This document shows, piece after piece, positions 1,423-23,407 of a stretch of DNA of 32,000 nucleotides. Every line of letters starts with the position of its first letter. The stretch's first letter is position 1. A program made the translations under genes and the position numbers. The notes below the pieces were generated by a model. It was not told the origin of the DNA, did not search any database, and saw only the letters and a program-made list of their open reading frames with translations. Source of the DNA: Halomonas sp. GFAJ-1 (GTDB lineage: Bacteria; Pseudomonadota; Gammaproteobacteria; Pseudomonadales; Halomonadaceae); assembly GCA_002966495.1 (NCBI GenBank), contig CP016490.1:2590454-2622453 (forward strand). The letters run 5' to 3'.

Positions 1423-1494
1423 GCCAGTCATCAGCGGGAACGCTTTTATGTTTGTGCATTGTGCTTTTAACGTCGTTCAGGAGTGACCGCCCAC

Positions 1495-4194: not shown

Positions 4195-4476
4195 TAAGTG
4201 GTTTTGCTTCGCCTTTGGACTGAGTACAGAGGGCTGCTTAAGGCAGATTTCGACCCTGAGCGGACGTTCCCGAAACTATATATTTGCGGAGCCCTAAGCT
4301 CACAATGCGCGTTTTTCAGGTGCCGGCTGTAATATGAGTGCTCATATTTCTGGAGTATAATACTGTAAGTTTAGGTAAAAATGGTTTATGAAAAGGTGTT
4401 CTATGTTTATACGCAATTTTGAGAGAATGGTGATAATATTAACACGCATTCGCATGAATAAAATTGTTAGGCGCAC

Positions 4477-5028
4477 ATGAAATTTAGCGATCTTCTCGGC
4501 CAAGGGTACGACGAAAGAACCGAAATCATATATGCCAATCCAATTCGTGTTTATCTTCCGGAAACTCCGCTCAAGGTAATTGAGCAGGTCTACTGTCACC
4601 ACGGCAGAAAAGACGAGTTTCAGAGACAGTACGGAGAGCTTAATCTATCTGCCATAGCTTGGACCTCTATCACGTTGCCTGCCTCAGAAATAATTAAGGC
4701 TACTATCTACGAAGGTTTTATGCGTTGGTTCCGAAATGTTGAGTCCCGTACCTTGGAGTTTGCAGAGCGTGGCTGGCAGTGCATCGATAAGCGGAAAGAC
4801 GTAATTTCGCATTGGTCAAGGTATCAAACATGGTCGCGTCCACCTGTGTTCATCCAAGGGCTTACGCCGGGAGTTATCGGGGGACTGCACCTGATGGAAG
4901 GCCATACTAGAGTTGGCCTGCTAAGGGGCTTGGTAAAAGACGGAGTGCTTAGTCCGTTATCAAGGCATAAAGTCTTTGTTGGGCGTGTAGATGCGCCTAA
5001 CAAAAAATTGCATCAGACAAGCCGCTGA
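4477..5028 (+). CDS. hypothetical protein (183 aa)
   Basis: Clean ORF in a visibly AT-rich segment. No family recognised. Any ParB/Srx-like reading of LMEGHTRVG is speculative. Confidence 0.5.
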   Translation: MKFSDLLGQGYDERTEIIYANPIRVYLPETPLKVIEQVYCHHGRKDEFQRQYGELNLSAIAWTSITLPASEIIKATIYEGFMRWFRNVESRTLEFAERGWQCIDKRKDVISHWSRYQTWSRPPVFIQGLTPGVIGGLHLMEGHTRVGLLRGLVKDGVLSPLSRHKVFVGRVDAPNKKLHQTSR

Positions 5029-5057
5029 ATGCGGCGTTATACGTTTCTGGAGATACA

Positions 5058-5303
5058 ATGAGAGTTCTGGCTATCATTTCAAATGTTTTCTTGCTTATAG
5101 TGGTAGTACTACTCATCGTGGATAGTGGATGGCCATATGAATTAATTTATCAGTTAATGTTGCTTGTATTCTTTGCGGCCCCAATAATCAGTATTTTTGC
5201 TCTTGTTCAGTCAAATCTTGCTAAATCAGAAAGTTGGCTGGGCCTATTTATGCAACGGAAAAAGTTAGAAGAAAAAGAAAAGTTACGAAATTTACAAAAA
5301 TAG
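5058..5303 (+). CDS. small membrane protein (81 aa, two hydrophobic helices)
   Basis: Hydrophobic N-terminal 55 aa (VLAIISNVFLLIVVVLLIV, LMLLVFFAAPIISIFALV) followed by a Lys/Glu-rich tail. GGAG lies upstream of the ATG. Confidence 0.45.
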   Translation: MRVLAIISNVFLLIVVVLLIVDSGWPYELIYQLMLLVFFAAPIISIFALVQSNLAKSESWLGLFMQRKKLEEKEKLRNLQK

Positions 5304-5423
5304 ATAAATAAAACTGTATAACAATCGTAAGCAGTTCAGCCCTGCAGGCTCTGACGTCGCTTATCTCCGTTGCTGTTGTAAGCATTACCAGAGAGCAAAA
5401 CATCAATCAACGTCCCTCAAAGA

Positions 5424-6197
5424 CCGCTTCTGGCCGAGTAACGACGGCCCGAAATAGGCCGTCGTTCAGCCTCATCAAACTTCAGTCTGTTCTGCCATTT
5501 CTAACGCGTCATCTACCTCTATCCCTAGATACCTGACAGTGCTTTCCAGCTTCGTGTGACCCAGGAGCAGTTGCACTGCCCTTAGGTTTTTCGTGCGACG
5601 GTATATCAACGACGCTTTAGTGCGGCGCATCGTGTGCGTGCCATACACTGACGCATCTAAACCTATTTCGGTGACCCATGCTTTCACGATACGGGCATAT
5701 TGGCGTGTTGAAAGATGCTTTGCGCTATTGATGCGGCTGGGAAACAAGAAGTCTTCGTTTCTAAGTTGAGCAAGCTGTATCCAGTCCATGATAGCAATAC
5801 GCGTTTGCTCGGTTATTTCGAACTGGACAGGTCGATGCGTTTTTTGCTGCATCACGATGGCTCGTGGGGATATGCACGCACCATGGGCTATATCCCGGAC
5901 TCGTAAATTGACAAGGTCGCAGCCCCGTAATTTGCTATCAATGGCTAAATTGAAGAGGGCAAGGTCTCTCGTCTTTTTGGCAAGCTGTAGGCGCACACGT
6001 ATAGCCCAAATATCTCGAAGGCGCAGAGGCGACTTCTGACCAACTAACTTGCCTTTATTCCAAGGTGTAGGTGTACAGGAGATTTCAGTCACAACGTTCA
6101 TGGCATGTTCCTCCATCAGGTGGAGGTCAAAGAATGGCTCAATTCATGCTCGTCATGTGCTAAGGATAATTTACAATCGGTGCTCGACCCAAAGCGG
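5424..6197 (-). mobile_element. recombinase module copy 1 (~770 bp), bounded by imperfect inverted repeats
   Basis: Near-identical to 8195..8962. The ends are CCGCTTCTGGCCGA (5424-5437) and TCGACCCAAAGCGG (6184-6197). The reverse complement of the latter, CCGCTTTGGGTCGA, matches the former at 11/14 positions. Confidence 0.55.
5475..6101 (-). CDS. short tyrosine recombinase/integrase (catalytic domain only, ~208 aa)
   Basis: Catalytic pattern R (KLRGCDL), H-x-x-R (HTMRRT), H (LLGHTK) and Y (TVRYLG). GAGGA lies 8 nt upstream of ATG 6101; the ORF track starts at 6116 with no RBS. Confidence 0.8.
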   Translation of the reverse strand: MNVVTEISCTPTPWNKGKLVGQKSPLRLRDIWAIRVRLQLAKKTRDLALFNLAIDSKLRGCDLVNLRVRDIAHGACISPRAIVMQQKTHRPVQFEITEQTRIAIMDWIQLAQLRNEDFLFPSRINSAKHLSTRQYARIVKAWVTEIGLDASVYGTHTMRRTKASLIYRRTKNLRAVQLLLGHTKLESTVRYLGIEVDDALEMAEQTEV

Positions 6198-6364
6198 TTA
6201 TTCCAGGAAACGCAGCAGACGCGCGATTTTTGGAGATACAACCTAATGGAAATTGATGATTTTGAATATTATAGACTTTTACAGGCTGCATTTGCCGGAT
6301 AAACGTGCCGGAACGTTTTTTCAATCATAAGATGGGAAGTCTAATACACTGTTAGGCGTTTAAA

Positions 6365-7777
6365 ATGGATAGATGCGAGAAACGAATAGAGGCGGCGTTC
6401 CTTGTCCAGTGCTCGTCACAGGCTGCGTACGATTGGTTATTTTCCCGCAGGTACACTGGTGATCAGGGGCCGCCTAGGCTTTTCGAAGCCCCTGAGATTC
6501 TGGAGTACTTGTTGGTTCGCCGTAAGGATCCATTCATTGACTTGGCTATTGCACGCTTCGGCCACTCCCTACCAATGATTCGAAGGGTGTTCAGGCGAGG
6601 TAACGTGGGAACACGGTGTGCTGCTCTAGCGAATCTACATGTTGGGCCACGTACTCGTATGAATCGAATTAATGAGGGTTGGCTCCAGGAAGACGAGCTT
6701 AGGAAGCTTATTCGGAGTGGCTCAGAAGCAGAACTTGAAGCGTTGATTAAAAACAGATTTCTAAACGATGATGCGCTCGAATGTCTGCTTGAACGAAAAG
6801 AGGAATTTGCGGATATATCCGAAGAGCAATATATTAAGATGCTCATTTGGTTAGGGAAAAATCCTCGTATGTCGGCTGAATACGACCACAGGATTCTTGA
6901 CGGCTGGGCGGAGTCTAGTCATGCAAGAGTATTCTCGTTGGCTTGGGAGCTTGCGCGACATTTAGCTACAACAAAGACAAATGCCCGGGTGCTGTATGAA
7001 CTTCTGAAGAACACCGCGTTACCCGTTGGCTATGACAATCCTGAAGAAGTCTTGGAGCGATGGAGAATTGAGCAGGAACCCAAGAACGGACGCAGGTCAC
7101 TGGCATATTCATACTTCCTTAGAACGCGTCTTGCTGATGTTCTAAAGGCCGATGATAAACTTCTTTCCTCCAACGACCCATCGGAAAGAGAGTCGTTCTA
7201 CCGAAGATTCTACCCTTGGCAGTACAAGGACTGGCCCACGTTTATAGAGCGAGATGGCGGGCTTGCTTTCGATGCGATGGCTGAAAATAACGAATTGTGG
7301 CGTAACGCGGAGAGTCGGGAAGTATTACGCGATTTAGCTTGGAAAGTTCCCGATCCTCATTCATCTATGAGGGCTCCGAATACCTACAATGCTGTCGAAG
7401 AGCGTAAACTTAGGGAACATCCAGAATGGTTTGCAGATGAGGATTCGGAGTACAGCAATGCTCCGGATGCGATAGTCCGGCGTGTTGAGAAAAAAATGGA
7501 TAAGCTTGTAGATGCTGTCGAACCATTTTTGGGCAAGGATAATTATATCAATACCGTGGCGCAAGATATTGTAGAAAAAGTGGAGCGCTTGTCGAAACGC
7601 ATAGAGGATGCAGACACTGATAGTCAAAATGAAATTAGGCATGAACTCCATAGCTTGCGAGATGAACTGCATGAAACTAGAGCAATAACTCAACCGGCAC
7701 CATGTAGGTATACACGTGCGCCTGTTTGGCCATGGATCATTATCATTGGCCTTTTAATATTACTATTGCTGAAGTGA
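6365..7777 (+). CDS. hypothetical alpha-helical repeat protein with coiled-coil and C-terminal transmembrane anchor (470 aa)
   Basis: Long ORF. The C-terminus is VWPWIIIIGLLILLLLK. An acidic or coiled segment (VEKVERLSKRIEDADTDSQNEIRHELHSLRDELHE) precedes it. Confidence 0.6.
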   Translation: MDRCEKRIEAAFLVQCSSQAAYDWLFSRRYTGDQGPPRLFEAPEILEYLLVRRKDPFIDLAIARFGHSLPMIRRVFRRGNVGTRCAALANLHVGPRTRMNRINEGWLQEDELRKLIRSGSEAELEALIKNRFLNDDALECLLERKEEFADISEEQYIKMLIWLGKNPRMSAEYDHRILDGWAESSHARVFSLAWELARHLATTKTNARVLYELLKNTALPVGYDNPEEVLERWRIEQEPKNGRRSLAYSYFLRTRLADVLKADDKLLSSNDPSERESFYRRFYPWQYKDWPTFIERDGGLAFDAMAENNELWRNAESREVLRDLAWKVPDPHSSMRAPNTYNAVEERKLREHPEWFADEDSEYSNAPDAIVRRVEKKMDKLVDAVEPFLGKDNYINTVAQDIVEKVERLSKRIEDADTDSQNEIRHELHSLRDELHETRAITQPAPCRYTRAPVWPWIIIIGLLILLLLK

Positions 7778-8194
7778 AATATGCCTAACACCTATGAGCC
7801 TTCTCTCTGTCAATAGGCCGTAGGAGTTTTATTAGCCGCGCAAGCAGCCAATATCAAGCCCCTGAGCCAGTGATCCTACTTCATCTGTCATCATTGGCTG
7901 TAAGTGGCTTACAGCAAACACCTATTGAGGCACACTTATTGCGGTGGTTCACCAAAGGCTTCTGGCATGTAGGTCAATTCCACAGTAGTGGCGATGAGTG
8001 CTAGTGTAAAAGTTCATTGAGTCTTCTCCTGTTAGGTTTGGCCACCTTTTCAGCTTAACCAAACGGGCTGAGCTGGGGGAGAAGGATAAATGAGTATCAA
8101 TCCCATCAACAATGGCAGCAAAAAGCGCCGCTCCTTCGTTACCTGCTTTTTGCTTCTGGTTTTGGGCGGCGTTAAATCAGTGTTACCTAAAATA

Positions 8195-8962
8195 CCGCTT
8201 TTGGCCGGACAACGACGGCTAAGGATAGGCCGTCGTTTATCCATATCAAACCTCTGTCTGTTCTGCCATTTCCAACGCATCATCTACCTCTATCCCTAGA
8301 TATCTAACGGTGCTTTCCAGCTTCGTGTGACCCAAGAGCAGCTGCACTGCCCTTAAGTTTTTAGTGCGACGGTATATCAGCGACGCTTTGGTGCGGCGCA
8401 TCGTATGCGTGCCATAGATTGAAGCATCTAAACCTATTTCGGTGACCCAGGCTTTCACGATACGGGCATATTGGCGCGTGGACAGATGCTTTGCGCTATT
8501 GATTCGGCTGGGAAACAAGAAGTCCTCGCTCCTGAGCTGAGCAAGCTGTATCCAGTCGATAATAGCGATCCGAGTTTGCTCGGTAATTTCGAACTGGACA
8601 GGTCGATGCGTTTTTTGCTGCATCACGATGGCTCGTGGGGATATGCACGCACCATGAGCAATATCTCGTACACGTAAATTGACGAGGTCGCAGCCTCGTA
8701 ATTTGCTATCGATGGCTAGGTTGAAGAGGGCAAGGTCTCTCGTCTTTTTGGCCAGCTGCAGGCGCACACGTATAGCCCAGATATCACGAAGGCGCAGAGG
8801 CGCCTTCTGCCCAACCAACTTGCCTTTATTCCAAGGTGTAAATGAGATTTCAGTCGGAACGTTCATGGCATGATCCTCCATCAGGTGGAGGTCAAAGAAT
8901 GGCTCAATTAACGCTCGTCATGTGCTAAGGTTAATTTACAGTCAGGGTTCGACCCAAAGCGG
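8195..8962 (-). mobile_element. recombinase module copy 2 (~770 bp direct repeat of 5424..6197)
   Basis: Same end motifs as copy 1: CCGCTTTTGGCCGG (8195-8208) and TCGACCCAAAGCGG (8949-8962). The encoded protein differs from copy 1 at only a handful of residues plus a 2-aa indel. Confidence 0.55.
8246..8866 (-). CDS. short tyrosine recombinase/integrase, second copy (~206 aa)
   Basis: Same R/HxxR/H/Y motifs as 5475..6101. Uses the same internal ATG with GAGGA upstream (the ORF track starts at 8881). Confidence 0.8.
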   Translation of the reverse strand: MNVPTEISFTPWNKGKLVGQKAPLRLRDIWAIRVRLQLAKKTRDLALFNLAIDSKLRGCDLVNLRVRDIAHGACISPRAIVMQQKTHRPVQFEITEQTRIAIIDWIQLAQLRSEDFLFPSRINSAKHLSTRQYARIVKAWVTEIGLDASIYGTHTMRRTKASLIYRRTKNLRAVQLLLGHTKLESTVRYLGIEVDDALEMAEQTEV

Positions 8963-9149
8963 CCCTCTCGGCAACTGGTTCAGTTGTGTTATGCAGCCTA
9001 TTCATATCCATTTGCATTTAATTTCAATGGAATAGAACATAAATGATAGGCGGCATAACCTAAATGAACGCTCCCCCGTGTTCATTTAGGTTATGTAGAG
9101 GGTGTATAAACACCGATACGTGGGTACCTGATAATCTCAGAGGGTAATT
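8948..9149 (+). repeat. repeated leader unit A (attI-like): core TCGACCCAAAGCGG, GTTATGCAGCC box, 16-bp perfect hairpin, RBS
   Basis: Aligns by eye with 9900..10130. Shared blocks are tcgacccaaagcggccc, gtgttatgcagcc, aatttcaatgg, ataacctRaatgaac/gttcattYaggttatgtagaggg and ggtaattWtatg. The hairpin spans 9054-9069 / 9080-9095. Confidence 0.6.
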
Positions 9150-9530
9150 ATGGCAAAGGTAGGAATAGTTCTCGTCACGGCCCTTTTTATCGCAGGCTGC
9201 GCTTCGCAGATCATGGAATCTTACGTTGGAAAAGACATTCGTGAAGCTGCCCTAGATTACGGCCCACCTTCAAATGCCATCGATATGGGTGATAACGAAA
9301 GAGCTTTTCAGTGGGTAATGAATTCAAGTTTCACAACCCCCGTTACTACCACCACTACAGGGAGCGTAACATCGTATGGTCCGGGCTCTTGGATTAATAC
9401 AAACACCACAGTAACAGGCGGGGAGACAGTCAATTCATCCTGCATCTACACGCTAATGGCTCGCTGGAATGAGCGCTCAGAAAGCTGGATTGTAACTGGT
9501 TTCAGAAAGCCTCGGTTTACCTGCGAATGA
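9150..9530 (+). CDS. putative lipoprotein (126 aa)
   Basis: Signal peptide with lipobox LFIAGC. Thr-rich mature part. GAGGG RBS present. Confidence 0.6.
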   Translation: MAKVGIVLVTALFIAGCASQIMESYVGKDIREAALDYGPPSNAIDMGDNERAFQWVMNSSFTTPVTTTTTGSVTSYGPGSWINTNTTVTGGETVNSSCIYTLMARWNERSESWIVTGFRKPRFTCE

Positions 9531-9899
9531 CCACTTAACAAGGCAATCAAATTCGTTCTGGCCTTTGGCTTCTACCGAGTGCCTTTATCAGAGCGCAGCT
9601 TATTGTTGCCGTATGTGCTACTAGAAACCGCAAAAGCAAAGATGAAAGAAAGCCACGCACAGTGGCTAGGCGCGCTAGGAGGCAAAGCAAGGTGTAAAGA
9701 AGAAACACAAAAAAATCTGCCAAATAACATGCAGTCTCAATGGTGTGTAGCGACTTGTGCGCATTGCACGCACGACCTAGCTTCACGATGCATGAATAAA
9801 CAATTCGCCTAGATCTCACCCTTTCGTTGAAAGCAGTGACAAATTTCAATTTCTTAATATGCCGAATGAAAGCTACGTTGAGGTGAATAGGGAGCTGTA

Positions 9900-10130
9900 A
9901 TCGACCCAAAGCGGCCCTTCCGGCGAAAGCTGCATGCTGATTCAGCCGTGTTATGCAGCCGGCACGATAATCTATGTTATGCTGCCTATTTATAATTAAT
10001 TTATTTTAATTTCAATGGGGTAGATCGTGAATGATGGGCTGTATAACCTGAATGAACTCGGCGGTGCGTTCATTCAGGTTATGTAGAGGGATGTATAATA
10101 ACTGTTGCGTGTCGGTAACGAGGTAATTTT
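9900..10130 (+). repeat. repeated leader unit B (second copy of the attI-like unit, no recombinase gene next to it)
   Basis: Core TCGACCCAAAGCGG at 9901-9914. Two direct boxes: GTTATGCAGCC (9950-9960) and GTTATGCTGCC (9976-9986). Hairpin at 10043-10057 / 10068-10082. Confidence 0.6.
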
Positions 10131-10694
10131 ATGGCCCTTTTGGCCGAAGAAATTGTTGAGGAATGGCTGAATAGGCAGGGTTACTTCACTATCCGTGGAA
10201 TCCGTCTTGGCGTCAACGAGATTGATTTGGTCGCCGTAAAGTTCAGATCAGGGGAAAGCCCAGTTTGTCGCCATGTTGAGGTACAGGCGTCAATGAGACC
10301 GGTAAGCTACATCTCCAAGGTGCCCAAAGCTGCACGAAAAACAGGCCGAGCTGCGAATAGCGCAGCACGTTCACAGGAAGAACTTGTTGAAGGTGTTGCC
10401 GAATGGGTGGAGGGAAAGTTCCATGCCACCAAGAAGCGCTCACTTATGGCAACTCTGTGGAGCGGGGAGTGGTCGTCGGAGCTGGTTATAAATAACGTCA
10501 AATCTGAGCAGGAAGTAGCGCTTATCGCAGAGCATGGAGTAATTATACACCGGCTTCCTAAGATTGTTCGGGAGCTTCAAGTCAATGATTTCCCAATCAA
10601 AAGTGCTGCTGGAACAGATTTTATAGACCTCTTGCAAATGGGGGCCAACACAAAACAAGATGCTCTACCGTACGCTCCTTCGTCACGCCGGTAA
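10131..10694 (+). CDS. hypothetical protein with PD-(D/E)xK-like (YraN/endonuclease-like) N-terminal region
   Basis: The pattern EEIVEEWLNRQGY...NEIDLVAV...RHVEVQAS resembles the E..GY..EIDL..VEVK signature, with Q in place of K. The stop lies inside the attC-like site. Confidence 0.55.
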   Translation: MALLAEEIVEEWLNRQGYFTIRGIRLGVNEIDLVAVKFRSGESPVCRHVEVQASMRPVSYISKVPKAARKTGRAANSAARSQEELVEGVAEWVEGKFHATKKRSLMATLWSGEWSSELVINNVKSEQEVALIAEHGVIIHRLPKIVRELQVNDFPIKSAAGTDFIDLLQMGANTKQDALPYAPSSRR

Positions 10695-10708
10695 GCTCTG
10701 CGTTATAA
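10650..10708 (+). repeat. attC-like recombination site (59 nt)
   Basis: Imperfect palindrome ACAAAAC-AA-GA[T]GCT[C]TACCG ... CGGTA-AGC-TC-TGC-GTTATAA. Paired AAC/GTT ends, with unpaired T and C on one arm. Confidence 0.6.
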
Positions 10709-10724
10709 GTCATTGAGGTTCTGA

Positions 10725-11393
10725 GTGAGTAATGAAATTCGGGCGATAATTCAGAAGGCTGAAGAAACGCTCCAAACTGCTAGGTTTGGCTACGAGGATC
10801 TCACGTCGAGAAATCGCTACCGGAGGTATTCGGGCATCCGAAACTTGGTCGTTTTTGGCCGTTCAGTGACTTTCGTAATTCAGAACCTTAAAACGCCTGT
10901 TGGTTCTGATCGGTTTGATGCTTGGTATCAACCGATACAGGAAAAAATGAAGTCTGATGTTCTGATGAAGTATTTCGTCACGCTGAGAAACGAAATACTC
11001 AAACAGGGAAAACTGCCGGTCAGCACATCTGCCTCAGTCAACTTCTCATCTTCTGACATGGTAAAGTTGGGAACACCTCCCCCAGGAGCCAGTGGATTTT
11101 TCATTGGAGATCAAACTGGCGGTAGTGGGTGGGAAATCGAATTGCCGGATGGGACAAAGGAAAAGTATTACGATGAACTCCCCGAAAGCATGGCTAAGGT
11201 TCAGCAGCACTTCAGCGAATTGCCGGTTCCAGATGATGACGATTTGAAGAAAAAGTCTATCGAGGAGCTTTGCGAATACTATCTTAAAGAACTTGAAGGG
11301 GTCCTAGACGAGGCTCGGAAAGTCTTCTTGGGTGAGGATACTCAAAGGGCCGGAGGGAAGAGGCTTCCTCCTTATTTGAGAGTAGTGAAATGA
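10725..11393 (+). CDS. hypothetical protein (222 aa), cassette-borne
   Basis: GTG start with GAGG 6 nt upstream. Flanked by the inverted pair GTTATAAGTCA (10702-10712) and TGACTTATAAC (11391-11401). Confidence 0.55.
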   Translation: MSNEIRAIIQKAEETLQTARFGYEDLTSRNRYRRYSGIRNLVVFGRSVTFVIQNLKTPVGSDRFDAWYQPIQEKMKSDVLMKYFVTLRNEILKQGKLPVSTSASVNFSSSDMVKLGTPPPGASGFFIGDQTGGSGWEIELPDGTKEKYYDELPESMAKVQQHFSELPVPDDDDLKKKSIEELCEYYLKELEGVLDEARKVFLGEDTQRAGGKRLPPYLRVVK

Positions 11394-11394
11394 C

Positions 11395-11478
11395 TTATAA
11401 CCAGTGCAGGCACGGCGACGCCCACTACATTGCGCCTTCGGCTCCATTCCGTGGGCGCGCATGCTGCAAGCGTTAGCC
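11395..11478 (+). repeat. attC-like recombination site (84 nt)
   Basis: TTATAAC...TGCAG...GCG[A]CGCCCAC - loop - GTGGGCGCGC...CTGCA...GTTAGCC. Arms pair with one extrahelical A. Ends with a GTTRRRY-like box. Confidence 0.7.
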
Positions 11479-11491
11479 TTTATGGAGAGTT

Positions 11492-12460
11492 ATGAGTAAG
11501 CCTTTAATTTACCTAGATCAAAATATCATCGGCTTGCAGTTGCAGGGCATTATCAACCTGAGTAAGCGAGATGATGTAACTTGGGTTTACTCAAAAGAGC
11601 ACTTTGCAGAGATTCTACGCTCTAATAAATCTGAGAAATATTTAGGTGTTCTCGATGCTATAGATGCAAAATTATTAGACCTTGTTCTTGACGATAACTG
11701 GAAAATTACTGGTGAAGCTAGGTTAATTGAGAACGGAACCCCATATGAACATTATGATAGCTACATTGAAGCAACCGGTGATGTAGATTTCGATGACTCC
11801 ATTTTCGACCCATTCCAGGTATGGGTTAACGGTGGTGGAGACGAAGGTCCATTAAAGGACCTCTCTGAAAAATTCGCACAGCAAATCTTAAGGCTCACTT
11901 CTGACTTGCCTTTTGATACTACAGAAATGACTGACCAAGTTAAGCAGATAAAGCCCGAATTTGATTCCATGATCGATGAGATGATATCAAATGGAAATGA
12001 TATCCATAAGACTAGGGCGGCTTTCGGAGATCAGAAAGGCTCCATCGGTAGTATATCAGGCGAGAAACAGATTGAGAAAATTTGGGAAATAATATCCCCA
12101 ACGATGCACGGGGCAGATATTAGTTGTGATCAATTTTTTGGCTTTGATCCCATCGATAAACAAGGTTGCGGCATTTGGCCAATTTATCTCGGAATAATTG
12201 GATGCAATTCGGTGCTTGATATATTAGGTTTTCAAGCAGAGAAAAAATGCAGAAAACTAAACAAAATTCATAACGTAAGAAGTGATGCTGGTCATATAGC
12301 GATGGGCGCATATTGCTCAGCAATCATGTCTGAGGATAAGCGTTTAGTTAAAAGAGCAAAAGCCATCTATGAATATAAGGAAATAGGAACTTCTCCTATT
12401 CTGGTCATACGAGAGGCTAACAAACCAATCCAGCCGACCGCTGACGCGTCGGCTGATTGA
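11492..12460 (+). CDS. hypothetical protein (322 aa), cassette-borne
   Basis: Clean ORF with GGAGAG upstream. The N-terminal IYLDQNII is loosely PIN-like (speculative). The stop lies inside the next attC-like site. Confidence 0.55.
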   Translation: MSKPLIYLDQNIIGLQLQGIINLSKRDDVTWVYSKEHFAEILRSNKSEKYLGVLDAIDAKLLDLVLDDNWKITGEARLIENGTPYEHYDSYIEATGDVDFDDSIFDPFQVWVNGGGDEGPLKDLSEKFAQQILRLTSDLPFDTTEMTDQVKQIKPEFDSMIDEMISNGNDIHKTRAAFGDQKGSIGSISGEKQIEKIWEIISPTMHGADISCDQFFGFDPIDKQGCGIWPIYLGIIGCNSVLDILGFQAEKKCRKLNKIHNVRSDAGHIAMGAYCSAIMSEDKRLVKRAKAIYEYKEIGTSPILVIREANKPIQPTADASAD

Positions 12461-12470
12461 AGCGTTCGTC
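12415..12470 (+). repeat. attC-like recombination site (56 nt)
   Basis: GGCTAAC-AAAC-CAATC[C]AGCCGAC - CGCTGACGC - GTCGGCT-GATTG-AAGC-GTTCGTC. Near-perfect arms with one extrahelical C. Confidence 0.7.
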
Positions 12471-12482
12471 AGCTTTGAGAGC

Positions 12483-13274
12483 GTGGTGTCAACGATGAGT
12501 GAAATTCCTGGATTTAGGGACGTGGGGCCACATGAGCCATTGTCCGTCGAGGCCACTTGGGACGAGTTCGTATCGATCTCAGGCGGGAAACGAATCTCGG
12601 ATGATCTCCCGAAATCTCCCGATTTTGATAACGCCGATTATCTGTTCGAGCAAGATGCTGTAGTACTTGAGTTGAAGGAAATCGAGACCGAGTTCCTACG
12701 TTCTAAATCTGCCAAGCGCGGGTTCGAGGATCTCTTAACGCGGCTTACTGCAGAAGATCCTTCATGGCGGCCGCTTTTGTTAGGAGGTGATGGACAATAT
12801 CCAGCGTGGTTTCATCAAGGGTTCGTTCGCCTTGCAAGGCCCGCCATTCTACGGGTACTCAAAAAGGCCAATAGGCAAATTCGGGAAACGAAAGAGAAGT
12901 TTCGGATCAACAGTCCCAACGGAGTGCTCATATTCGTCAATGATGGGTTCACTGGTTTGGCGCCAGGCCTCGTTCACGCTCTCGCCTGTGACGCATTGGT
13001 GCACTCCTATTCCTCAATTGATTGTTTCCTTTATGTCACCGTCAATCGCTATGTTGAGGTCACGCAGTCGAATGAGCCAAAGATAATTTGGAATCCGTCC
13101 TACAGTGATCGGGCGCCTAATGAACTCGTAACCTTTATCGACACCCTTGGGCGGCGCTGGTTCGATTTCTTAGAGAACAAAATCGGGCCGTACACGTCCC
13201 GCTATGAAGGCGGCGATCGGTCGATACTTCATGGCTCCAAGGCTATCGTCATCCCGGGTGAGGAAGACAGGTGA
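12483..13274 (+). CDS. hypothetical protein (263 aa), possible PD-(D/E)xK nuclease fold
   Basis: ORF with an alternative ATG at 12495. The stretch NADYLFEQDAVVLELKE fits D-x10-E-x-K; this reading is speculative. Confidence 0.5.
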   Translation: MVSTMSEIPGFRDVGPHEPLSVEATWDEFVSISGGKRISDDLPKSPDFDNADYLFEQDAVVLELKEIETEFLRSKSAKRGFEDLLTRLTAEDPSWRPLLLGGDGQYPAWFHQGFVRLARPAILRVLKKANRQIRETKEKFRINSPNGVLIFVNDGFTGLAPGLVHALACDALVHSYSSIDCFLYVTVNRYVEVTQSNEPKIIWNPSYSDRAPNELVTFIDTLGRRWFDFLENKIGPYTSRYEGGDRSILHGSKAIVIPGEEDR

Positions 13275-13294
13275 GCGGTCCTGCGCCGCCGAAC

Positions 13295-13365
13295 AACAAA
13301 CTGTACCTGACGTCTCCGCCTCCGCTGTGCTATGGCGGAGCCGCAGGTGAGCTTGAGCGTTAAAT
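13295..13365 (+). repeat. attC-like recombination site (71 nt)
   Basis: AACAAAC..ACCTG-ACGT-CTCCGCC - loop - GGCGGAG-CCGC-AGGT..GCGTTAAAT. The terminal GTTAAAT fits GTTRRRY exactly. Confidence 0.7.
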
Positions 13366-13403
13366 TCTATAAACCCACAGATCAGAAAGAGTTGGATATC
13401 CGT

Positions 13404-14429
13404 ATGAGCAAGGAGATACTGGAGGAGCAGCGAAGATTTTTCGAGTTTGTTAAGAGCTATGAACATATCAATGAAGAGGGCCGTCTTGACTTAGAAGCTT
13501 TCTGTGTAAACCTCTCAACGTGTTTCAATTGCGATGGGGTTCTCGATCAATCGCCTCAGCCCAGAGAAATCTTTGATTTGCTCATTGACATACTGGAAAC
13601 CAAAGCTACCGGGAAGGAGATGTCCTTATGGTTGCAGAGGCAAAACCTGATCGATTGGTCCCCCGAAGTTGCTCAGGTATATCCGGATGGCTATAGAACC
13701 TATATTCATGTAGCTGGCTTAATTCACGCAGCATACACGTGGATATATCACATTGGGCACTCCTTGATGGGGATCTCTGAGCCCGAATCGCCAAAAAAAT
13801 ATTTTGAATGGATCCCACGTGAATGGGTTTTCGTTCATGCGTTTATAAATGGATTTCACATCAAGTTTTCTGAGTTTCAAAAAGAAATCGATAGGAGCTC
13901 AGTCGGTGAAAGAGGGTATTCATTATTCGAGTCACTACACAAGTCGATATCTAACGACCTTTCCTTTGAAGAAGCGTCTCAGGAGATAAAGGAAAGAGAC
14001 GTAGCGCATCGCGAAACGATAAAAAGAATCGAGATAGCTATTGATTCAGGCTTTAATCTTGAGGCGATTACCTTGCAAGAGTGCTTGATTAGTAATTGCC
14101 TTTTCAATTACTTGGAAAGTCTTGGTATTAAGGCTAAAGGTTTTTCATTTCAAAAGCTCTTAAAAAAGAGTAAGGACTGCTTCAACGATAGTTCGGACCT
14201 GTTTAATGAGGTTGATTCTTGGAGAATTAAAAGGAATAACGCAATACATGGGTTCGTTGAGTCAACCTTAGGGTCATTTTCTGAATCTCAAGAAAAATTT
14301 GACCTCTTTGCCAGAGGGACCGCCTTGGAAGGTGATGCTCTCTCCAAAAGAGTTTGTGAGTGGTATCTTGAAGAGTCTGTAAACTTCATACCAGCCGAGT
14401 TTCCTAAAAGTGGAAGAAATCTCAATTAA
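13404..14429 (+). CDS. hypothetical protein with C-terminal HEPN-like R-x4-H motif (putative RNase)
   Basis: RNNAIH at 14232-14249 (WRIKRNNAIHGF). The ORF-track start at 13332 lies inside the attC-like site, so ATG 13404 (MSKEILEE) is preferred. Confidence 0.55.
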   Translation: MSKEILEEQRRFFEFVKSYEHINEEGRLDLEAFCVNLSTCFNCDGVLDQSPQPREIFDLLIDILETKATGKEMSLWLQRQNLIDWSPEVAQVYPDGYRTYIHVAGLIHAAYTWIYHIGHSLMGISEPESPKKYFEWIPREWVFVHAFINGFHIKFSEFQKEIDRSSVGERGYSLFESLHKSISNDLSFEEASQEIKERDVAHRETIKRIEIAIDSGFNLEAITLQECLISNCLFNYLESLGIKAKGFSFQKLLKKSKDCFNDSSDLFNEVDSWRIKRNNAIHGFVESTLGSFSESQEKFDLFARGTALEGDALSKRVCEWYLEESVNFIPAEFPKSGRNLN

Positions 14430-14435
14430 GGTGAT

Positions 14436-14494
14436 ATTTAACAAGTTACGGAAGGCGGACGCGTAAGATGTGCCCCTTCGTTTTGGCGTTATAT
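14436..14494 (+). repeat. attC-like recombination site (59 nt), last of the array
   Basis: ATTTAAC (exact RYYYAAC) -AAGTT-ACG-GAAGG-CGGAC ... GTGCCCCTTC-GT-TTTGGC-GTTATAT. Imperfect palindrome. Confidence 0.6.
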
Positions 14495-14767
14495 CAGGCA
14501 AAGCTGAAAGGCCGCTCCTGGCCGATAGTTGACGTTGAAAAGCTGTTTGTTGGTGCCAAAATCTAAAATTTGCTTGTTTTGAAAGAAGTAAGCACGTGTA
14601 GCGACCTATGAGCAGGTTAGAGAGAGTTTCGGCACACAGTTTGTATATTTCCTAGTAGTGTTCAAAAGCTGTAGGAACGAACAAGGAACGCTAGCGAGCT
14701 AAGCGGTAGATCAGAGAAATGTTTTCGCTGAGATGTGTAGTGAATTGTCCATGAGTAACGTCCATCA

Positions 14768-16541: not shown

Positions 16542-16762
16542 TTTCTAGCTTAGGCATAAGCCCAAGGCTTTTGTGTTGTTTGACCAGGTGTGCTCATTCG
16601 ATGGTAGTGACAACGGTTAGGCGTGAGCGGCGCTGACATTACAGCCTTTGATCATTGAGAAGGCGCGATGAGCTTTATAGGCCAATATTTTTTAGAAAAA
16701 TTTATGCTTTATGGTGGATAGCTGCTATACGTTTGATAAGGATATCTTAGCAGGTGGTTGCC

Positions 16763-18001
16763 ATGAAATTGCTTGTCCGCCCAAGACCGTTCATTAACGA
16801 GTCACTTGAGAGCTACATGCTCCGTCTATCGCAAGAAAATTTCTTCGAATACTATCAGCAGCTTAGTCGAGCGATAAAAGACTGGCTGCAACTGCATGAT
16901 CATGAAGCGGCAGGGGCGTTCCCAGAAGAGTTGAGCCGTTTGAATGTTTATCACGCGGCTCAGAGTAGTAGTCGACGCATCAGGGCGCTCAAGCTAGTGG
17001 AGTCGCTAACAGATAATGAAAAACTTCCGCTACTGCACTTGGCAGTCATGCATTCCAGCGAGAAATTTTGTTCACGCTACAGTAGCGTGTTTTATGCAGG
17101 TAGCCATGTACCCCGAGCGTTAGTTCGCCAAAAGGGGATACCTGTCTGCCCTGATTGCCTCACTGAAGCCAACTACATTCGGCAAGAATGGCACTGGATG
17201 CCCTACGAAGCTTGTATTAATCATGGCAAACAGATGTTACATGAGTGTCCAAAATGCGAAGAGAAATTAAATTACACCCATTCTGAATGTTTGCATACTT
17301 GCCGCTGCGGATTTGATCTTCGAAATGCTGACACGGAGCCAGCAGACGAATGGCAGCTTATCGCTAGCCGCCTCGTAGTAGGTGAGCCTTCGCCTTCAAA
17401 CCACCCTCTACTCGACATCCGTTCAGTCAGTTTGCGCCTAGCATGTCTGTTGTGGTACCAGCTGTATGCATATAAAACGTTAGATGCTAGTAATCAGGTT
17501 CCCACTCTTACGATTGAGCGGGCTATCGAGTATTTCACGCATTGGCCTGAAGTGTTTACACAGGAACTAGAGCAGCAAGCGGCGCTTTCAGGCGAGAAAT
17601 TAGTATGTGATTATAATAAAACCTCATTTCGTGATGTTTTTGGCAACATTGTCGGCATTTCGCGTCTGCTGTTGAAGGCTTATCCAGAAAGCGATTTCGT
17701 CTTGACGCCATTGGAGAATTTTTTAGCACGATTGGTTGATCAGAATCCGCAATCACGTGTGCCAAACGTCGCAGATCTGCTCATCAGTATGCCGGAAGCC
17801 GCGATTTTGCTTGGCACGTCGTATGAGCAAGCATACCGTCTATATGAAGAAGGGTATCTCAAATGCGCGGTCAAATTTAAATCACATGAAAAGCTAGTGA
17901 ACGGTATAGGAGTATTTTACTTAAGAGAAATCATGGAGTTGCGTCAGTCACGAATACCGGTTGAGGCAAGCAGCTATAATAATTATTTACCAGCGTGGTA
18001 A
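16763..18001 (+). CDS. tniQ: TniQ family transposition/targeting protein
   Basis: N-terminal PRPFINESLESYMLRLSQEN. Cys clusters CPDC and CPKC..C.C form a likely zinc ribbon. AGGTGG lies 5 nt upstream of ATG 16763. The stop is 4 nt before the next gene. Confidence 0.8.
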   Translation: MKLLVRPRPFINESLESYMLRLSQENFFEYYQQLSRAIKDWLQLHDHEAAGAFPEELSRLNVYHAAQSSSRRIRALKLVESLTDNEKLPLLHLAVMHSSEKFCSRYSSVFYAGSHVPRALVRQKGIPVCPDCLTEANYIRQEWHWMPYEACINHGKQMLHECPKCEEKLNYTHSECLHTCRCGFDLRNADTEPADEWQLIASRLVVGEPSPSNHPLLDIRSVSLRLACLLWYQLYAYKTLDASNQVPTLTIERAIEYFTHWPEVFTQELEQQAALSGEKLVCDYNKTSFRDVFGNIVGISRLLLKAYPESDFVLTPLENFLARLVDQNPQSRVPNVADLLISMPEAAILLGTSYEQAYRLYEEGYLKCAVKFKSHEKLVNGIGVFYLREIMELRQSRIPVEASSYNNYLPAW

Positions 18002-18005
18002 CGTC

Positions 18006-20066
18006 ATGTCGTTAAGTACGTTGTTGGAATTGGATGAGCCAAACCGCTCAGAAGCAATTCGTAAAGCTTTCGCTCCCTACACGCAGCCGCTAGAGGTTTC
18101 TGAAGATGTTAACGCTGCTATTCTGGTGTTGCTTAACTTATCGCATAAGCGTCAAGACGCTCCCGATTTGTTGAATAAAAAAAGAGCAATTGAAACACTC
18201 AAAGATTGGCAGTATATCGAAAGTTGTGCTCAAGAAGTACAGTGGCTGCACTCACATAATCTAAAGCATCCTGATACACGTGTCGCACATCAGAGATTGT
18301 TAGTAAAAGCTGAGAAGCCCTCGGACAGTATTGTTTCTTCATATAATAGCGTGAGTCGTTTGGGCTGGTCACACAACTCAGCAGCTGTGAATAAAGCAAA
18401 GCTTTTTGGAGCTAATTTTATATTTAAGGGTGTAGTTTACTGTTTGGCCGCTATTTTTTTAGATAATAACAAGCAATGGCGGAAAGAATTCATGAATCTT
18501 GGTATGTCTGATGGTCAATGGACTTACCTTCAGTCGCTTTTTGATAATTATTTCACTAAAAATTTATCACCCTCTTATGTGGAAAGGCATTCGGTGCAAG
18601 TTACCTTTCTTTATCAAGGAAAGGATGTCAGTATTACACCTGTCACATCACATTCATTACTGGCCGACATTCAAATTGCTCGGCGTAATAAATGTGGAGA
18701 TTTTGCAACAATAAAACATTGGCACTCTTCAAGTGTTGGAGATTTAGCATCCTCGCTTGGAGGTAATATCTCTGCTCTTAGTTATCCCCCTCGACTATTA
18801 GCCTGTAGCCAAAATAAAGAAAATGAAAATTCTTCTGGAGTCTTTTTTGTAGACTTCCATCACAGTTCTTTAAGAAGCAAATCGTTTATCCTGGCATGTA
18901 CTGAAATTGTTGAAAGTAAAAGCTTGTTGACCGGAAAGAAGAGGCGAGATCATAGGCGTTCTGCTATTAAGTTGCTGAGGCAGTCTTTATCTGAATGGCT
19001 ATCCCCAGTTAGCTATTGGCGAAATGTAGGAGGAGAAGCGCTTTCAGAACGGCAGAACAATTCAGCATGCCTTTTGATTTCTGCTCCTGACGAGGATTTA
19101 CTTGAAATCCTACCTGAGATTAATAAAGAATTACACAGTATTTTGGTGAGGTATCCCCAAACGCAAAGCTTTGCTTATCATCCAGAGCTATTAATTCCTT
19201 TCAAGGCTCAGCTTAAGTCCTTATTGATTGGGATGAAAATAAAAGAAGACGAAGCTATGGCTGAAGAGCCATATTATTACCTTCACTTAAAAAACCTACA
19301 TGTATTCGATGCACAGGCGTTATCTTGTCCCTATCTAGTGGGTTTGCCTTCACTGCTGGCAGTATGGGGAACCGTCTATAACTACCAGCTACGTTTACGA
19401 AGCATCCTTAAACGGAACATTGCCTTTGAAGGAGTTGCTTGGTTTTTGCGGCAGTATGAGTCCTCCTCGGGTGCCAAGATACCTGCCCCGTATCTGGCAC
19501 CAACGAAGCCAGGTGAGGCTCCCAAGCGGCCAGGTCTTATTGATATGCGCTTTTGCGATTTACGCATGGATTTAGTTATTCGCTATCGACTAGAGGATGG
19601 GCACGATACCCCGCTTGGAAATGACGAATTGCCTATGCTGCAGTCTGCACTCCCCGGGAGGTTCGCTGGGGGGACTATGCAGCCTCCGCCACTTTATGAA
19701 GCCTTACAGTGGTGCCAACTACATGGAGATGCGAACAGTTTATTGGCAGCCATATCGCTTCTGCCGGACGAGGGTCGTTGGGTTGTCGACTCAGAAAAAC
19801 AGGTGCAAAGCATCGACAGCTTGGTGGCATGGTTGTCCAAGCATCCCCATCATTTACCTGCTATGAGTGGCTATCAGTTGTTTGAAGAACCTTGCTATCG
19901 GTCTGGTTCACACAGGGAGCTCCATGCTTATGCTGAGCCTTTGGTAGGTCTAACAGAGACGTTGTCACCGGCAAGCGTCAGGCTCAATGGTAAAGCTGAC
20001 TTTCTTAAAAACGCTTTTTGGAGGTTGAAAAGCCAGAACCTTACTATGCTGATGAAAAAAGCATAG
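18006..20066 (+). CDS. cas8: Cas8f/Cas5f-fusion-like large Cascade subunit (type I-F3 'Cas8')
   Basis: Its 686-aa size and its position between tniQ and cas7 match I-F3 CAST operons. I could not verify an independent motif by eye. Confidence 0.7.
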   Translation: MSLSTLLELDEPNRSEAIRKAFAPYTQPLEVSEDVNAAILVLLNLSHKRQDAPDLLNKKRAIETLKDWQYIESCAQEVQWLHSHNLKHPDTRVAHQRLLVKAEKPSDSIVSSYNSVSRLGWSHNSAAVNKAKLFGANFIFKGVVYCLAAIFLDNNKQWRKEFMNLGMSDGQWTYLQSLFDNYFTKNLSPSYVERHSVQVTFLYQGKDVSITPVTSHSLLADIQIARRNKCGDFATIKHWHSSSVGDLASSLGGNISALSYPPRLLACSQNKENENSSGVFFVDFHHSSLRSKSFILACTEIVESKSLLTGKKRRDHRRSAIKLLRQSLSEWLSPVSYWRNVGGEALSERQNNSACLLISAPDEDLLEILPEINKELHSILVRYPQTQSFAYHPELLIPFKAQLKSLLIGMKIKEDEAMAEEPYYYLHLKNLHVFDAQALSCPYLVGLPSLLAVWGTVYNYQLRLRSILKRNIAFEGVAWFLRQYESSSGAKIPAPYLAPTKPGEAPKRPGLIDMRFCDLRMDLVIRYRLEDGHDTPLGNDELPMLQSALPGRFAGGTMQPPPLYEALQWCQLHGDANSLLAAISLLPDEGRWVVDSEKQVQSIDSLVAWLSKHPHHLPAMSGYQLFEEPCYRSGSHRELHAYAEPLVGLTETLSPASVRLNGKADFLKNAFWRLKSQNLTMLMKKA

Positions 20067-20076
20067 GCAGGTCGGC

Positions 20077-21126
20077 ATGATGAACTCTTTCAGGCATCTT
20101 AGCTATGAGCGCTCTCTCAATCCGGGTAAGGCGGTTTTTTATTACCGGACAGATTCGAGCGAATTTGAGCCGTTGCAAGCGGAAGTGACGCGGTTTCGTG
20201 GCCCCAAGGCAACGTTTAGCGATGGCTATATGGCATCCGGGACTGCGCGTGCTAAAGAAACGAGCGATTTGGGCTTTTCTAATCCTATAATGCTCGAAAC
20301 GTGTTATGTACCACCGCTAGTCGATACGTTGTATTGTCGTTTTTCTTTACGCATCATTGCAAACAGCTTAGAGCCAAATATCTGTGATAATGCAGAAGCG
20401 ACAAAAGCATTAAAAGAATTCTCTGATACTTATAGAAACTTGGGCGGATACCAAGAGCTAGCAACTCGATATGCTAAAAATATTCTTTCAGCTGAATGGC
20501 TTTGGAAAAATAAAGTTGCAAGAGGGATAGCTGTGGAGGTTTCTACGTCTAATTTAAAAAACTATTGTATTAAAGATGCACAGTATAAAGAGTGGGGATC
20601 CTCTTGGGAAGGAGATGAGCTTAAATCATTAGAAGGGCTTGCAGTTGAGTTTGAAGAGGCACTTTCTTGCCCACAAAAATTTCTTTTTGCTGATGTAGCT
20701 GCCAAAATAAAAACAGAATTTTGCCAAGAAATTTTCCCCAGTCAATTATTTGTTGAGAAAGATGATAGAGGCAACGGAAGTGCGTCTAGGCAGTTTATGA
20801 AAAGCACGATGAACGATGGTCGTCAAGCAGTTAGCTTTGGTGCTTATAAAGTCGGAGCAGCAATTCAAAAAATTGATGACTGGTGGCTAGATGAAGGGGC
20901 TGAATACCCTTTGAGAGTGAGTGAATACGGTGCAGATCGTAGTCGGGTTTTAGCTATGCGTGAACCAGTTACGAAGAAAGATTTTTACTCGCTGTTAAAC
21001 GAAATTACAAATATCACGGAGGAAATGATTAAAACCAGGCAGGCCAGCCCTAATGCACACTACGTGATGTCAGTGCTAGTGAAGGGGGGGATGTTCCAAA
21101 AAGGAATAAAGAAGGGTGAAAAATGA
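20077..21126 (+). CDS. cas7: Cas7f-like Cascade backbone subunit
   Basis: Blocks LSYERSL, ELATRYAKNILSAEWLWKNK, GAYKVGAAIQKIDDWW, KDFYSLL and VKGGMFQKG match what I recall of I-F/I-F3 Cas7. Confidence 0.8.
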   Translation: MMNSFRHLSYERSLNPGKAVFYYRTDSSEFEPLQAEVTRFRGPKATFSDGYMASGTARAKETSDLGFSNPIMLETCYVPPLVDTLYCRFSLRIIANSLEPNICDNAEATKALKEFSDTYRNLGGYQELATRYAKNILSAEWLWKNKVARGIAVEVSTSNLKNYCIKDAQYKEWGSSWEGDELKSLEGLAVEFEEALSCPQKFLFADVAAKIKTEFCQEIFPSQLFVEKDDRGNGSASRQFMKSTMNDGRQAVSFGAYKVGAAIQKIDDWWLDEGAEYPLRVSEYGADRSRVLAMREPVTKKDFYSLLNEITNITEEMIKTRQASPNAHYVMSVLVKGGMFQKGIKKGEK

Positions 21127-21731
21127 GATACTTTTTTTGCATAAAATATCTAATGCCTTCAGGCAATCACGCATTTTTAGCAGGGAGGTGTATTGCTTGC
21201 TTACATGGGTTTATAAGCGGCCCTAAAATAACGAATTCCGGCATTGGTGTTTCGTTTCCATCATGGGCTACGGGCACAGTTGGTGATTCAATCGCTTTCG
21301 TGAGTAAAGATATTAATGCTTTGTCTTATTTATCATCAGCGCGCTGTTTTAAGAATATGGCGGACGAAGGGTTTATTGACGTTAGTGATATTAAAATGGT
21401 TCCAGAGAAATTAGAAGAAGTTAGGTTTATTAGAAATCAGCATATTGCTAAATCTTTTCCGGGAGAAATTAAGAGACGGCTCATCCGCAGCAAAAACCGG
21501 GCTGAAAAACGTGGCGAGACGTTCATGCCTAGCAGTGCCGTATCAGATCGCTTCGTTGATCAATGCCACGTAATTCCAATTGATAGCCGATCGTCAGGCC
21601 AGCGCTTCCCACTGTATGTGCAGCTTGAAGCACTTGGCGAAGAAAGCAAGTATAATAACTACAATAGTTACGGGCTTGCTACACAGTATACATACTCGGG
21701 TTCGGTGCCAAACCTTAAGCAGATTACCTAA
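21123..21731 (+). CDS. cas6: Cas6f-like crRNA endoribonuclease
   Basis: ATGA overlap with the cas7 stop. Blocks GIGVSFPSW, basic RRLIRSKNRAEKRGE and C-terminal SYGL. The leader and array follow. Confidence 0.75.
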   Translation: MRYFFCIKYLMPSGNHAFLAGRCIACLHGFISGPKITNSGIGVSFPSWATGTVGDSIAFVSKDINALSYLSSARCFKNMADEGFIDVSDIKMVPEKLEEVRFIRNQHIAKSFPGEIKRRLIRSKNRAEKRGETFMPSSAVSDRFVDQCHVIPIDSRSSGQRFPLYVQLEALGEESKYNNYNSYGLATQYTYSGSVPNLKQIT

Positions 21732-21854
21732 ATATTTTCAGAATATATATTATTATACTTATCAATTACTTGCCTGAATTACGCTAAAAAGTGTGTTTTT
21801 ATCATTTTGTACTTATCTCGTTGATGTCTATATTTAAACTGCTAGCTAGGTCTA

Positions 21855-22002
21855 GTGAACCGCCGAATAGGCAGCTGAAAAAAGCACGTAGAGGAAGCAA
21901 GGGCAGAGGTGCCCGTGAACCGCCGAATAGGCAGCTGAAAAATGATTGAACGGTGCGCATATGCATCTGAGTGCGTGAACCGCCGAATAGGCAGCTGATA
22001 TT
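21855..22002 (+). CRISPR. CRISPR array: three 28-nt I-F-like repeats, two 32-nt spacers
   Basis: Repeats GTGAACCGCCGAATAGGCAGCTGAAAAA at 21855 and 21915, and a variant ...GCTGATATT at 21975. This matches the canonical I-F repeat GTTCACTGCCGTATAGGCAGCTAAGAAA at 22/28 positions. Spacers are at 21883-21914 and 21943-21974. An AT-rich leader spans 21732-21854. A possible degenerate fourth repeat lies at 22031-22057. Confidence 0.9.
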
Positions 22003-22060
22003 AGGACTGGAAGCCAGCAACGGTAATGATACACACCGCCGCAAGGCAGCAATGGTTCTA

Positions 22061-23160: not shown

Positions 23161-23311
23161 GTTTTTTTATAACGTCATTTTGCTACCGAAGCAAACGATC
23201 GTTTTACTTTATGTCATTTAAAAGTGGAAAACTTATGTCATTTTGCGGTGGAATTCTTGGTGTAAGTGACTGTTTTTTCGTATTGGTTATGTCAAGTTGA
23301 AGTGGAAACGA
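23161..23311 (+). mobile_element. Tn7-like transposon end (tnsA-proximal) with terminal TGT and four direct TnsB-type repeats
   Basis: TGTTTTTTTAT terminus at 23161. Repeats are ACGTCATTTTGCTACCGAAG (23173), ATGTCATTTAAAAGTGGAAAAC (23212), ATGTCATTTTGCGGTGGAATTC (23236) and ATGTCAAGTTGAAGTGGAAACG (23290). tnsA begins 97 bp further in. Confidence 0.7.
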
Positions 23312-23407
23312 CAATTTCTTGTCGTTTTCAATACTAGTTGGCATAATTCTCAAATAACTGGCATGAGCTACCTTTTATATAATTAAACTACATAAAAGGG
23401 TGGAGCC

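Follow-up and report, generated by a model that had tools for sequence, protein, structure and literature searches.

Are the palindromes that close a run of genes in Halomonas sp. GFAJ-1 the attC sites of an integron, and if so, what moves the cassettes when no integron integrase (IntI) lies nearby? We analysed a 32,000-nt stretch of this genome (contig CP016490.1, positions 2,590,454 to 2,622,453 of the forward strand; hereafter the window), for which an initial annotation made from the letters alone had proposed five attC-like sites in the cargo of a putative CRISPR-associated transposon (CAST). The array at about 4250-14525, flanked by bacteriophage exclusion (BREX) genes on one side and by the tniQ-cas module of a type I-F3 element on the other, is very probably an integron cassette cluster without a nearby IntI, as judged from sequence comparisons. 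Because five attC sites are clustered within 3.9 kb and no IntI gene is present in the 32-kb window, the array is classified as a CALIN (cluster of attC sites lacking integron integrase), a common type of structure (Cury et al. 2016, PMC4889954).

attC sites and the cassettes they close

The five annotated palindromes were all present when the sequence was checked, and covariance models (R1 and R2, described below) located an additional one, site 0. The bottom strand of an attC site folds into a hairpin with extrahelical bases, and IntI cleaves the GTT of the R' box after its G, excising or inserting the cassette as a circle. This crossover point is written here as G↓TT, and the arrow also marks the corresponding boundary in other motifs. 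The sites and their scores are as follows.

4995-5042, + strand: attC site 0, located by R1 and R2; R2 12.6 bits; R1 22.6 bits, E 6e-4
10650-10708, + strand: attC site 1, R'' ACAAAAC (10650-10656), R' GTTATAA (10702-10708); R2 11.0 bits, E 0.9 (aligned 10650-10706)
11395-11478, + strand: attC site 2, R'' TTATAAC (11395-11401), R' GTTAGCC (11472-11478); R2 26.6 bits, E 1e-4
12415-12470, + strand: attC site 3, R'' GGCTAAC (12415-12421), R' GTTCGTC (12464-12470); R2 32.0 bits, E 5e-6
13291-13365, + strand: attC site 4, R'' GAACAAC (13291-13297), R' GTTAAAT (13359-13365); R2 16.8 bits, E 0.03
14436-14494, + strand: attC site 5, R'' ATTTAAC (14436-14442), R' GTTATAT (14488-14494); R2 23.4 bits, E 7e-4; R1 28.1 bits

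The inverse core boxes expected of attC, AAC at the 5' end and GTT at the 3' end, are invariant across all six sites, as had been described for the first five. The outer four pairs of the R'' and R' boxes are only partly complementary, which is likewise the case in real attC sites. For reference, we gathered 11 class 1 integrons from plasmids with the 5'-conserved segment as the query and delineated 17 real attC sites, which share the order R'' (7 nt), 5-nt spacer, 3 bp, an extra C/G on the 5' arm, stem, 3 bp, 5-6 nt spacer and R' (7 nt). Four of the five sites match this layout, with the 7-nt R'', a 5-nt unpaired spacer, 3 bp, one extra C/G on the 5' arm and the stem; site 4, the one with a marginal score, requires a 3-nt deletion in the spacer to fit. 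The extra base of site 2, which had been given as A, is G.

Minimum free energy folding was significant against shuffled sequence only for sites 3 and 4, with z about -4 (-4.3 for the DNA fold of site 4). Since folding energy alone is weak evidence, we turned to covariance models. R1 was built on trimmed attC ends; as it missed long sites even with filters off, its maximum hit length being too short, R2 was built from the R1-produced alignment of 14 full-length class 1 attC sites. Neither training set contained any window sequence. When R2 searched both window strands without filters, its six best matches were sites 0 to 5, all on the + strand at the 3' ends of open reading frames (ORFs). The best match outside the array reached 11.0 bits, the same as site 1. 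In a control of 97 kb of plasmid DNA, attC sites held out of R2 training scored 22.8-57 bits and the best non-attC match 13.7 bits. The model test therefore bears out the annotation for sites 2, 3 and 5 (23-32 bits), which are within the range of held-out true attC sites, leaves site 4 marginal and places site 1 in the noise.

The six sites carry standard pairs in 81.9% of cells on the model structure versus 64.9% in shuffles, with none of 500 shuffles reaching the observed value, although the alignment was fitted to the model and the 81.9% leans in its favour. Shifted registers gave only 27-37% standard pairs. The L helix is paired at 88.9%, and 9 of 16 pairs have changed on both sides, in line with the earlier statement that the fold is kept while the primary sequence differs. 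Rfam returned no matches in the window at gathering thresholds. A pattern scanner of our own for attC geometry was dropped, as it gave 7 matches against a mean of 8 in shuffled sequence.

The sites delimit six cassettes.

4467-5036, + strand: cassette 0, ORF 4477-5028 (183 aa) with its stop inside the attC at 4995-5042
10105-10702, + strand: cassette 1, ORF 10131-10694 (187 aa) and attC site 1
10703-11472, + strand: cassette 2, ORF 10725-11393 (222 aa) and attC site 2
11473-12464, + strand: cassette 3, ORF 11492-12460 (322 aa) and attC site 3
12465-13359, + strand: cassette 4, ORF 12483-13274 (263 aa) and attC site 4
13360-14488, + strand: cassette 5, ORF listed as 13332-14429 (365 aa) and attC site 5

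Three of the ORFs closed by sites 1 to 5 had been said to end inside the site; only two do so (10131-10694 and 11492-12460), and the remaining three end 1-16 nt short of it. The listed start of the cassette 5 ORF falls inside attC site 4, so that the in-frame ATG at 13407 is probably the true start. None of the six same-strand ORFs matched an NCBIfam or PADLOC family, or a Pfam family above threshold; ORFs without a family are usual for integron cassettes.

That these are gene cassettes is shown by their homologues in other genomes. Homologues of the 322-aa ORF of cassette 3, 70-91% identical to it, occur in Pseudoalteromonas, Vibrio, Aeromonas, Cellvibrio and marine metagenome-assembled genomes (MAGs). 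In Pseudoalteromonas, a gammaproteobacterial MAG, Aeromonas and Cellvibrio, the cassette has kept its own attC. With R2, the attC that closes the homologue scored 30.4 (L097), 24.8 (L095), 20.0 (L102) and 13.5 bits (L101), and in L097 further attC sites flank the homologue. The homology with L097, L095 and L094 sets in precisely at G↓TTAGCC (window 11472/11473), and that with L097 and L095 stops at GCG↓TT (12464/12465), all flanks being unrelated; the Vibrio copy (L094) has lost its attC, and the homology breaks off just after R''. The 187-aa ORF of cassette 1 is found together with its own attC inside canonical arrays of Halorhodospira and of a metagenomic contig, where the orthologous sites score 27.3 bits (L105) and 23.0 bits (L103) and homology spans from G↓TTG(C/T)GTGTC to CTGCG↓TT. 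Because cassette 1 recurs with an attC and G↓TT boundaries, site 1 is, as judged from these orthologues, a true attC that has decayed a little, in spite of its low score. The attC type of site 2 has copies of 84-90% identity in TARA contigs. Discrete mobile units with G↓TT boundaries in different contexts are thus demonstrated for cassettes 1 and 3, and together with the covariance model they uphold the original identification of the palindromes as integron attC sites closing gene cassettes.

Small tyrosine recombinases and attI-like modules

Then, is there an enzyme in the window that could act on these sites? Protein family models found no IntI in the 32-kb window, and tblastn with IntI1 also gave no match, in agreement with the initial annotation. 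Its survey of integrases was incomplete, as two tyrosine recombinase genes encoding 211 and 213 aa were overlooked. Both proteins score 24 bits against the NCBIfam integron-integrase model, whose cutoff is 265, and the IntI of a complete integron is therefore absent from the window. Elsewhere, IntI-like gene fragments lie in two other recombinase-bearing arrays (L044 8059-8202 and L028 5582-6473); after that of L028 comes an ORF that matches an IS3-family transposase. The recombinase units of the window, each marked by a left and a right inverted repeat (IR-L and IR-R), are the following.

5424-6197, - strand: recombinase element A, 14-mer inverted repeats at 5424-5437 and 6184-6197, 213-aa gene at 5475-6116 (- strand; Pfam, NCBIfam)
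8172-8962, - strand: recombinase unit B, R'-like box GCG↓TTAAAT (8171-8177), 17-nt leader, IR-L 8195-8208, IR-R 8949-8962
8246-8881, - strand: recombinase gene of unit B, 211 aa (Pfam, NCBIfam)
14489-14525, + strand: truncated third recombinase unit, TTATATCAG, leader and IR-L CCGCTCCTGGCCGA, at the right array edge directly after site 5

The inverted 14-mers around each gene are CCGCTTYTGGCCGR and TCGACCCAAAGCGG, and the two genes are about 90% identical in DNA. The proteins consist of the catalytic domain only, without the N-terminal domain and the specific insert of IntI; their catalytic residues are intact as judged by eye, and among solved structures, XerD and XerC come closest to them. 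More than 575 relatives, each with at least 70% identity, are spread across Pseudomonadota. The unit of about 760 bp, in which the gene lies between 14-22-bp inverted repeats, was seen in the window and at loci L003-L016. In Pseudomonas, copies of about 80% identity stand as discrete units of this size between 22-bp inverted repeats; the sequences on either side are unrelated, and no attC is found nearby. R2 detected attC sites in only 6 of 80 recombinase loci, and of the 447 plasmids that carry the family, the two contexts inspected were both without an integron. Its unrelated flanks in Pseudomonas suggest that the unit of about 760 bp is a small mobile or invertible element; the literature we searched had nothing relevant on it. 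An ORF at 9547-9909 (- strand) was considered as a recombinase remnant and showed no similarity, and an integrase at the end of L103 proved unrelated to the window recombinases.

In the array, the recombinase units sit in the middle rather than at the head. The left edge of the unit in the window (8171), L002 and L032 consists of the R' box of the preceding attC (R'-like in the window), a 17-nt leader and IR-L, and a truncated copy of this junction starts from 14488 after site 5. In L099 (about 2177-2260), the two inverted repeats enclose no gene and are separated by only 27 nt. Since its left edge is an attC R' box and a gene-less form exists in L099, we infer that the unit behaves as a cassette whose content is the recombinase element or a miniature form derived from it. 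Gene-less repeat pairs 26-39 nt apart were seen in L099, L098 and L008 (11352-11405 and 15329-15382), and such closely spaced repeats could be miniature derivatives or empty sites.

A second recurring component of the array is a module of about 170-215 bp, of which the window has four diverged copies, each preceding an ORF.

4250-4466, + strand: module D, starts at core TCGACCCTGAGCGG, ends ...AATTG↓TTAGGC, heads the array
6184-6351, + strand: module A, ends GTCTAATACACTG↓TTAGGC, followed by ORF 6365-7777 (470 aa)
8949 to about 9107, + strand: module B, perfect 16-bp hairpin at 9054-9095, degenerate end, followed by ORF 9150-9530 (126 aa)
9901-10104, + strand: module C, no recombinase, hairpin at 10043-10082, ends AACTG↓TTGCGT at the junction with cassette 1

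All modules start at the core TCGACCC..AGCGG and end in GTCTAATAC(A)CTG↓TTAGGC or a variant; module B has GAT where the others have GTT. In the module end GTCTAATACCTG↓TTAGGC, the arms GTCTAA and TTAGGC are inverted around a 6-7 bp spacer. The simple site of attI1 in class 1 integrons is CCCTAA-N7-TTAGGC. The modules resemble it in ending GTCTAA-N6/7-TTAGGC with inverted arms and in the change of cassette content after the G. They differ from it in that an array has four copies, located mid-array and none beside an IntI, and in that the module itself is bounded by G↓TT like a cassette. Modules B and C contain perfect hairpins of 15-16 bp with ATAAC/GTTAT ends (fold z -5.5 and -8.2, respectively), which differ by one compensated pair (A-T to G-C) and have unrelated loops. 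Copies of these modules are also present in L001, L002 and L032 (Vreelandella, Halomonas), where sequences diverge right after GTTAG, and in TARA and other metagenomic arrays with 2-10 attC sites each. No recombinase accompanies modules C and D, the modules of L099 and L100 or one module in L098. The junction between module C and cassette 1 falls exactly on G↓TT, and hence a module end has served as a cassette junction.

What, then, are these modules? We rejected the idea of giant or atypical attC sites, as there is no conserved R''/L'' partner, candidate pairings lack covariation and R2 is blind to them. They might be mobile attI-type sites, that is, ORF-less G↓TT units that insert at attC and would provide extra mid-array capture points and possibly promoters, some with a catalytic-domain-only recombinase; we consider this doubtful, and no counterpart of the modules was found in the literature and sources searched. 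If true, it would point to a cassette-borne mini integron platform, or to an undescribed small tyrosine-recombinase element with miniature derivatives. As a separate observation, R''-like half sites follow ORFs 6365-7777 and 9150-9530, with R'-like boxes 350-390 nt further on (7786-8177 and 9533-9884); these pairs may be attC sites disrupted by insertions, though the model does not detect them.

Alternative readings and the possible source of IntI

Each canonical cassette consists of a promoterless ORF of unknown function and the attC that closes it. The cassettes would have been assembled by an IntI, and their present-day movement would take place only if the chromosome or another element provided IntI in trans; the array in its entirety, being transposon cargo, would move with the element. 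Most likely, the array depends on IntI supplied in trans or is a relic. Several points weigh against a cassette cluster carried as CAST cargo. The absence of IntI is established for the window and not genome-wide, and the stretch 5037-10104 does not parse into canonical cassettes of ORF plus attC. By score alone, sites 0 and 1 fall within R2 noise and site 4 is marginal; R2 is our own proxy derived from 14 class 1 attC sites and not the IntegronFinder model, and its E-values are rough. Finally, tnsABC and one transposon end lie beyond the window edge.

Hairpins that sit after ORFs, three of five of which fold no better than shuffled sequence, might be ordinary terminators or intergenic repeats of the repetitive extragenic palindromic (REP) type that are spread genome-wide and unrelated to integrons. 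No intrinsic terminator was called on the + strand at any of the five sites and T-tracts are absent, as the initial annotation had also seen; the sequences differ from one another yet fit the attC model, and homology breaks at G↓TT in other genomes. The model fit, the G↓TT breaks of cassettes 1 and 3 and the absent terminator calls refute this explanation, to which we give next to no weight. A different proposal would make the 211/213-aa recombinases the integrases of the array, a catalytic-domain-only enzyme and an attI-like module having replaced IntI. At least five instances (A and B in the window, L001, L002 and L032, with a BLAST overlap in L098) have the gene divergent beside a module, and cassette content changes at the attI-like site that terminates the adjoining module. 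The exact G↓TT junction between module C and cassette 1, the attC arrays in 6 of the 80 recombinase loci, the lack of any IntI found in these arrays and the apparently intact catalytic residues all fit. On the other hand, the Pseudomonas units have unrelated flanks and no attC sites nearby, both inspected plasmid contexts are free of integrons, five modules or module-bearing loci do without the recombinase, the units are located mid-array and the protein lacks the N-terminal domain and the insert of IntI. The small recombinase is probably not the integrase of the array, and its replacement of IntI appears very unlikely.

The array could also be an inert relic of old captures, with no compatible IntI in the genome and movement only with the whole element, an explanation that we find possible but less likely than not. 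The missing IntI of the window would agree with it, as would the substitutions of site 1 that weaken pairing relative to its orthologues, the degenerate end of module B (GAT for GTT), the truncation of the third recombinase unit at 14525 and the homologous cassettes found in several genomes without IntI within 10 kb. However, three of the attC sites score as well as functional class 1 sites, and the absence of IntI covers the window and not the remaining genome. The cassette ORFs are moreover intact and 80-93% identical to copies elsewhere, which suggests recent exchange.

Probable transposon setting and relation to known systems

The genes on both sides of the array are listed below.

28-1422: PglZ of the BREX system, at the window start (Pfam)
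1483-3567: BrxL of the BREX system (Pfam)
16754-18001, + strand: tniQ of the type I-F3 module (Pfam)
17961-20066, + strand: cas8 (Pfam)
20077-21126, + strand: cas7 (Pfam)
21123-21731, + strand: cas6 (Pfam)
21855, 21915 and 21975: starts of three CRISPR repeats 3' of cas6 (repeat search)
16754-22023, + strand: whole type I-F3 block, tniQ-cas8-cas7-cas6-CRISPR

The genes of a type I-F3 CAST, tniQ, cas8, cas7, cas6 and a CRISPR array, are thus all found downstream of the cassettes. Location of the array (about 4250-14525) in the cargo of such an element, as initially proposed, is plausible and most likely, but it is only half verified because tnsABC and the far transposon end are outside the window. 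After the CRISPR array lies an AbiEi-like antitoxin gene (22270-22809), and at 23209-23683 three repeats TGTCATTT..GTGGAA are followed by a 91-aa fragment resembling the TnsA N terminus; this region resembles the right end of another Tn7-like element, decayed and arranged in tandem with the CAST. A Halomonas MAG (L018) has BREX genes about 81% identical to those of the window and the recombinase, with no attC detected. A related array is located in the Vreelandella boliviensis chromosome with ordinary genes on either side, and this type of array is therefore not specific to the transposon; further related arrays are found on TARA contigs.

How does the array compare with known systems? It is like other CALINs in having several attC sites on the same strand, each closing a single ORF, with no integrase nearby, and unlike them in being interrupted by recombinase units and attI-like modules, which are outside the CALIN definition. 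An intact or partial integron is present in 10% of Tn7-like transposons (Benler et al. 2021, PMC8649781). The window shares with such integrons, including the class 2 integron of Tn7, a cassette array as cargo of a Tn7-family element. It differs in that neither an IntI gene nor a remnant of one was found, the cassette products are unknown proteins instead of resistance determinants and the carrier is a type I-F3 CRISPR-guided element. As in the sedentary chromosomal integrons of marine Gammaproteobacteria, ORFan cassettes are shared, here with Pseudoalteromonas, Halorhodospira and TARA arrays, and attC types recur; unlike in these, the five attC sites differ in length and sequence, and the array is short and on a mobile element. 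IS1111-attC elements and group IIC-attC introns are mobile elements that live inside cassette arrays. The recombinase element resembles them in recurring in arrays 12-17 nt after an attC R' box, whereas it encodes a tyrosine recombinase instead of a DEDD transposase or a reverse transcriptase, and most of its copies are outside integrons. IntI is described in one report as also able to place cassettes outside att sites (10.1101/2022.09.11.507474).

Since CALINs (PMC4889954) and integrons in Tn7-like cargo (PMC8649781) have already been described, the array itself is a known kind of structure, and it extends the knowledge of Tn7 rather than changing it. The parts of most interest are the attI-like junction modules in the middle of the array and the widespread small tyrosine recombinase element of about 760 bp. 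For the biology of these elements, the array means that a CRISPR-guided transposon can serve as the vehicle of an integron cassette pool, which links two gene-capture systems: an RNA-guided element can take along cassettes whose function is unknown and which may be accessory or defence genes.

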